Below are positions 50,245 to 50,303 of a DNA stretch of 64,000 nt, piece after piece (the stretch's first letter is position 1; every line of letters starts with the position of its first letter). The stretch lies in the NCBI RefSeq assembly GCF_003334385.1, contig NZ_QOWN01000021.1; one strand, 5' to 3'. Below the pieces are notes generated by a model. It made no database searches. It was not told the DNA's origin and worked only from the letters and a program-made list of their open reading frames with translations. Made by a program: the position numbers and the translations under genes. The stretch is from Escherichia coli. GTDB lineage: Bacteria; Pseudomonadota; Gammaproteobacteria; Enterobacterales; Enterobacteriaceae.

Positions 50245-50257
50245 CGATGTGTTTTTT

Positions 50258-50300
50258 GCGCCGATGCCGGATGCAGCGTTTACGCCGCATCCGGCAGCCG
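50258..50300. repeat. REP element between convergent djlC and hscC
   Basis: gcgccgatgccggatgcagcgtttacgccgcatccggcagcc: REP palindrome. Confidence 0.5.
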
Positions 50301-50303
50301 TGT

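Follow-up and report, generated by a model that had tools for sequence, protein, structure and literature searches.

The palindromic REP elements of E. coli, to which the element described here belongs, are recognised by two hallmarks, a 5′ GTAG head and an AA/GC bulge, of which the GTAG head is absolutely needed by TnpA-REP (PMC8266576). Some 60% of all REPs are located between two convergent genes, and 207 of the 704 convergent pairs of E. coli carry one (Harris et al., 2026; bioRxiv 10.64898/2026.03.23.713779). The same preprint places 78 REPs within bidirectional terminators, explicitly proposes that the REPs of convergent genes act both as two-way terminators and as blocks to degradation, and describes REP325 as a partly Rho-dependent terminator as well as a stabiliser (Harris et al., 2026; bioRxiv 10.64898/2026.03.23.713779). 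On a broader scale, stem-loops that are devoid of U-tracts, some of them REPs, have been described as typical ends of Rho-dependent transcripts, where they shield the RNA from PNPase and RNase II and are accompanied by rut sites just downstream (Dar and Sorek, 2018; PMC6061677).

Here we examined a REP that separates the convergent genes djlC and hscC in a window of 64,000 nucleotides of E. coli DNA, the whole stretch that was analysed. Position 1 of the window corresponds to MG1655 position 631420 (a coordinate offset of 631419), and comparison with NC_000913.3 yielded 6 SNPs over 11.8 kb. The chromosome is E. coli K-12-like. The IS5D element (insH3) of MG1655 is missing here, and divergence from MG1655 begins at about window position 56432. 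The gene djlC, which encodes a J-domain co-chaperone, occupies positions 48793–50244 of the + strand (an ORF of 483 aa with its TGA stop at 50242–50244), and hscC, which encodes an Hsp70 homologue according to NCBIfam, occupies positions 50304–51974 of the − strand (an ORF of 556 aa with its TAA stop at 50306–50304), both names being those in the RefSeq annotation of E. coli records 100% identical to the window. The intergenic gap between the two convergent stops (50245–50303) is exactly the 59 bp given in the earlier note, with the TGA of the + strand at one border and TTA, which is TAA on the − strand, at the other.

Two paralogous triads, ybeQ-ybeR-djlB and ybeT-ybeU-djlC, adjoin each other at about window positions 44150–50244, each composed of a Sel1-repeat protein, a DUF1266 protein and a J-domain protein. 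For HscC, the best relatives outside Escherichia in the genome collection, found in MAGs of Lachnospiraceae and Eubacterium, reach an identity of only about 44%, which suggests that HscC is narrowly distributed and has perhaps undergone an old horizontal transfer. A Rheinheimera contig of 737 bp that is 100% identical looks like E. coli contamination.

The gap contains one palindromic unit, derived from the Y type, at positions 50262–50296 of the + strand; it is wholly extragenic, shares 28 of 35 positions with the Y REP found at window positions 695–729, and is named REP57 in Table 16 of Harris et al. (2026; bioRxiv 10.64898/2026.03.23.713779). Searching the window for the REP 13-mer GCCGGATGCGGCG with up to two mismatches returned 9 occurrences against 2.7 expected, and both arms of REP57 match it. 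In Rfam, both strands of the gap gave sub-threshold matches to naRNA4, a family derived from REP325 (Harris et al., 2026; bioRxiv 10.64898/2026.03.23.713779), and no other known RNA family was matched. The gap had previously been described as consisting essentially of one REP, which is right as to the single unit and too generous as to its share, only about 35 of the 59 bp. Elsewhere in the window, REPs occur as the canonical, GTAG-headed Y unit at 695–729 and as a multi-unit cluster at 63671–63730.

Set against the canonical Y copy at 695–729, REP57 has an identical tail arm and a loop that is one base off, but it departs from that copy in its head and stem. The GTAG head is replaced by CGAT (50262–50265), the AA/GC bulge, a 2 × 2 bulge in the canonical copy, is closed so that a single A·C or G·U mismatch is left, and the head arm resembles a second tail arm. 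Judged by these features, REP57 is a REP by descent and annotation, yet a non-canonical one that would not be competent for the transposase.

The gap reads CGATGTGTTTTTTGCGCCGA-TGCCGGATGCAGCG-TTTA-CGCCGCATCCGGCA-GCCGTGT, and folding places a left arm of 14 nt (TGCCGGATGCAGCG, 50265–50278), a loop of 4 nt (TTTA, 50279–50282) and a right arm of 14 nt (CGCCGCATCCGGCA, 50283–50296), the last of which is the canonical REP tail arm. The only mismatch of the stem involves A50275, which forms A·C in the + RNA and G·U in the − RNA. As RNA, the gap folds with −30.2 kcal/mol on the + strand (z = −2.3) and with −31.4 kcal/mol on the − strand (z = −4.7), where none of 200 shuffled sequences was equally stable. 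With −28.5 and −31.4 kcal/mol, the REP57 hairpin exceeds the canonical Y copy of the window (−21.1 and −22.7 kcal/mol) by about 7–9 kcal/mol, and this added stability goes back to the lost GTAG head and the closed AA/GC bulge.

As strong as this hairpin is, it lacks the second half of a classical terminator. A terminator scan found no hairpin followed by a T-run on either strand of the gap, and a promoter scan of the gap likewise returned no hit. The sole T6 run of the gap (50252–50257, + strand) lies 5′ of the hairpin in the + RNA and becomes an A6 3′ of the hairpin in the − RNA; it therefore sits on the wrong side, and neither transcript can use it as a U-tract. The flanks that do follow the stem are GCCGTGTT on the + strand and TCGGCGCA on the − strand. 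The earlier statement that the gap is free of a T-run terminator stands accordingly, with the correction that a T-run is present and wrongly placed. An intrinsic terminator was considered as an identity for the element and ruled out, because the stem has no U-tract behind it on either strand and classical intrinsic termination is thereby excluded.

Transcript ends at this hairpin are already in the literature. Table 16 of Harris et al. (2026) re-tabulates 306 bidirectional terminators that lie between convergent genes of E. coli, with separate scores for the log and the stationary phase, and marks those containing REPs; its column names, together with the account of Wang et al. (2022), lead us to infer that the table goes back to the SEnd-seq work of Ju et al. 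(2019). The entry with serial number 48 spans MG1655 positions 681679–681717, which correspond to window positions 50260–50298 with exact sequence agreement, and lists the RNA CGCCGAUGCCGGAUGCAGCGUUUACGCCGCAUCCGGCAGC with a stem of 14 and a loop of 4, the 5′ flank having 0 A and the 3′ flank 3 U; it is annotated as convergent, gap_region, log phase only, hscC:rihA:djlC and REP57 (bioRxiv 10.64898/2026.03.23.713779). The published transcript overlap is thus about 39 nt (50260–50298), with the 3′ end of the + strand (djlC) RNA at about 50298, some 2 nt beyond the core stem, and that of the − strand (rihA-hscC) RNA at about 50260, some 2 nt beyond a slightly extended predicted − strand stem. Opposite transcripts hence end across one and the same hairpin and overlap, as is characteristic of the SEnd-seq class. 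The proposal made in the earlier note, that the REP may stabilise or terminate the 3′ ends of both convergent transcripts, is supported by this overlapping bidirectional site at 681679–681717, and the 3′-end mapping of djlC and hscC that had been suggested as its check turns out to be published already, in agreement with the bidirectional reading.

Such 3′ ends could be produced by termination proper or by exonucleases that trim the RNA back as far as the hairpin. We consider it probable that REP57, folding on both strands into a GC-rich hairpin of 14 bp, sets the steady-state 3′ ends of both transcripts, and would thus form the last part of the djlC mRNA on the + strand and of the rihA-hscC mRNA on the − strand. 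The anatomy of the element, its folding, the missing U-tract and the published 3′ ends are observed. The route to these ends, which we infer, would begin with an RNA polymerase that reads past the REP and goes on transcribing antisense to the opposite gene; there, on untranslated, C-rich RNA, Rho would release it, and 3′-to-5′ exonucleases would then trim the transcript back until the hairpin blocks them. For about 400–600 nt downstream of the REP, C exceeds G on both transcribed strands (ratio 1.2–1.75), which fits the expectation for Rho loading. Hairpin pausing and head-on collisions between polymerases could add some true termination at REP57, and any benefit to the expression of the two genes would be a further, conjectural step.

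The main rival to this route would make REP57 a true bidirectional terminator, at which the hairpin pauses the polymerase, head-on collision follows and trailing polymerases bring about dislodgement, with neither Rho nor trimming involved. The site is entered among the overlapping bidirectional terminators, and these were described as unlike intrinsic terminators and as Rho-independent, a stem-loop being required for positioning the collisions (Wang et al., 2022; bioRxiv 10.1101/2022.10.23.513370). The efficiency found by Wang et al. (2022), however, climbs with expression, so that pairs with weak expression are terminated less well, and since djlC and hscC are both weakly expressed, convergent polymerases should rarely be present on them simultaneously, which makes termination by collision alone rather doubtful at this locus.

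Weak expression (a baseMean of about 108 for djlC) also counts against Rho release followed by trimming, which we prefer. The independent Term-seq study of Adams et al. (2021) has, in its curated list, no 3′ ends at MG1655 positions 6816xx/6817xx, an absence that is probably due to low expression; it is weak evidence, because under the conditions used there hscC is seldom transcribed as far as the REP. In the same data, the hscC leader contains a 3′ end that depends on Rho, at MG1655 position 683425 (− strand, window position about 52006; Adams et al., 2021), and hscC seems to be attenuated within its leader. Taken together, weak expression and this early Rho cut mean that little RNA arrives at REP57. 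The end at 683425 precedes the hscC start by 32 nt, and a region of termination by Rho is given at MG1655 position 683379 (− strand, window position about 51960), 14 nt into the hscC ORF (Adams et al., 2021). Entries for djlC or hscC were not found in the RepRanger supplement. Two further points weigh against the preferred reading: the site was seen in the log phase alone, and REPs genome-wide have no lengthening effect on mRNA half-lives.

The element might instead act on the DNA, by binding gyrase, DNA polymerase I, IHF or HU and thereby relieving convergent supercoiling or organising the nucleoid. BIMEs bind gyrase and IHF, and positive supercoils, which arise from convergent transcription, are expected between convergent genes such as these. 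The djlC-hscC gap of the window, however, holds a single REP and no BIME, and neither nucleoid compaction nor REP-REP contacts were seen by Harris et al. (2026), so that we regard a DNA-level role as highly improbable.

A different consequence of the hairpin would concern translation, and here the two genes are not alike, an asymmetry that goes beyond what the earlier note contained. The stop codon of hscC is separated from the core stem by 7 nt (3 nt if the outer stem is counted), that of djlC by 20 nt (or 13 nt, counted in the same way). According to the rule of Liang, Rudd and Deutscher (2015), in the form in which it is quoted in PMC12306157, translation is down-regulated by REPs whose distance from a stop codon is below 16 nt; a REP lies within 15 nt 3′ of the stop in the case of hscC, and outside this distance in the case of djlC when measured to the core stem. 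In addition to its role at the 3′ end, REP57 might therefore put a brake on hscC, through ribosome stalling, mRNA cleavage and tmRNA rescue, with less HscC as the predicted result. The 7-nt spacing falls inside the quoted range, and the hscC-side spacing is equal in the short and long alleles described below and in other Escherichia, but hundreds of REPs satisfy the distance rule and the brake is a prediction only; we hold it to be possible, if somewhat doubtful. By the same measure djlC should escape such a brake, its stop being 20 nt from the core stem. A common SNP of B1/E-type strains, T50303A, falls on the base that follows the hscC stop, turning TAAA into TAAT on the − strand, and could change the termination context of hscC.

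To see how the gap varies, the djlC-hscC junction was surveyed in 5426 complete E. coli genomes. It is colinear with the window in about 4370 of them and missing from 1048, while 77 carry an allele of 110 bp with multiple REPs, among them SMS-3-5; the same allele is found in 23CRST013 (positions 1429–1538 of its locus, L048). In this long allele, a canonical, GTAG-headed Y REP stands head-to-head with Z-like units, forming a BIME, and gaps of the same type, again with a GTAG-headed Y REP, are found in E. whittamii and in Escherichia sp. MOD1-EC7003. E. coli of the phylogroup-F-like kind still carry the multi-REP allele, as do other Escherichia. In MOD1-EC7003 (positions 5813–5855 of its locus, L003), the gap combines several REP units with a 7-nt microsatellite, (GCATCCG)n, that appears to have grown out of a REP tail arm.

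Across the Escherichia alleles examined, the right arm CGCCGCATCCGGCA is near-invariant, with one substitution each in an ST131 strain and in E. whittamii. Two SNPs fall into the stem of E. coli strains, G50278A in BL21, O145, O157 and AR_0119, and C50295T in an ST131 strain, at a cost of about 2–6 kcal/mol; they weaken the stem slightly, and no compensatory stem changes were seen among the short-allele strains compared. Their lack of compensation speaks against our preferred reading and in favour of a neutral relic, that is, a decayed and immobile remnant of a REP or BIME in a permissive gap, which caps the RNAs incidentally and has no selected function. Also consistent with a relic are the missing GTAG head that TnpA-REP of E. 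coli needs, the existence of an alternative multi-REP allele, and the dispensability of the locus, given that the junction is absent from 1048 of the 5426 genomes and that two strains have djlC annotated as a pseudogene, BL21(DE3) with a frameshift and the O157:H7 strain Wll001 with an internal stop.

The main observation against a relic comes from outside the species. Of three non-coli Escherichia that are about equidistant from the window, one carries the short allele; Escherichia sp. E1V33 has it, and its gap differs from that of the window at only 2 of 59 positions, and at none of the 32 nt of the core hairpin, whereas 56 of the 255 four-fold sites of hscC differ (binomial P = 6.8e-5). So low a divergence of the gap would be explained by constraint, by gene conversion among REPs or by local recombination; the latter two could yield the same pattern as constraint, a caveat that tempers the comparison. 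Weighing both sides, we find it unlikely that REP57 is a mere relic.

The same comparison bears on a more elaborate history, in which the short allele would be a domesticated REP, its head arm overwritten, the element immobilised, strengthened and selected as a two-way 3′-end element. A deletion within an ancestral BIME, or correction of the palindrome, would have made the head arm tail-like; this would have removed the GTAG and closed the bulge, leaving a fixed hairpin stronger by 7–9 kcal/mol that selection would have kept. The core hairpin is indeed identical in E. coli and in the E1V33 lineage despite 22% four-fold divergence. By eye, no simple deletion junction leading from the long to the short allele could be reconstructed exactly, and we consider domestication an improbable account.

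Both the element and the idea of a bidirectional 3′ end at it are already known, and the case is real yet ordinary. It matters little in itself, because the gap between convergent genes is the commonest context of REPs and REP57 has already been named and tabulated. Its residual value is that of a clean, single-unit example with a natural pair of long and short alleles, which could help to part termination from exonuclease blocking and to probe the rule of stop-codon proximity on hscC. Should the domesticated-REP reading be true, the allele pair would also offer a natural test of how REP structure tunes convergent genes.

REP57 can be set beside several known systems. With intrinsic (Rho-independent) terminators it shares a strong, GC-rich hairpin at the transcript end, and differs from them in having no U-tract. 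With the overlapping bidirectional terminators of the class of Ju et al. (2019), as this class is presented by Wang et al. (2022), it shares the convergent gene pair, the hairpin in the gap and the overlapping ends; many of the bidirectional terminators listed, however, have an A-tract 5′ and a U-tract 3′, in contrast to the 0 A, 3 U and log-phase-only detection of REP57. With the ribosome-stalling REPs of Liang et al. (2015), as far as they are described in the quoted rule, it shares the distance to the stop on the hscC side (7 nt), while the djlC side (20 nt) lies outside the 15-nt range. What it has in common with REP325 (yjdMN) is a REP hairpin that lies in a 3′ UTR, where it determines the 3′ ends and stops decay (Harris et al., 2026), but REP325 is a multi-unit array between tandem genes that has been tested experimentally, whereas REP57 is a single unit between convergent genes whose ends have been tabulated.
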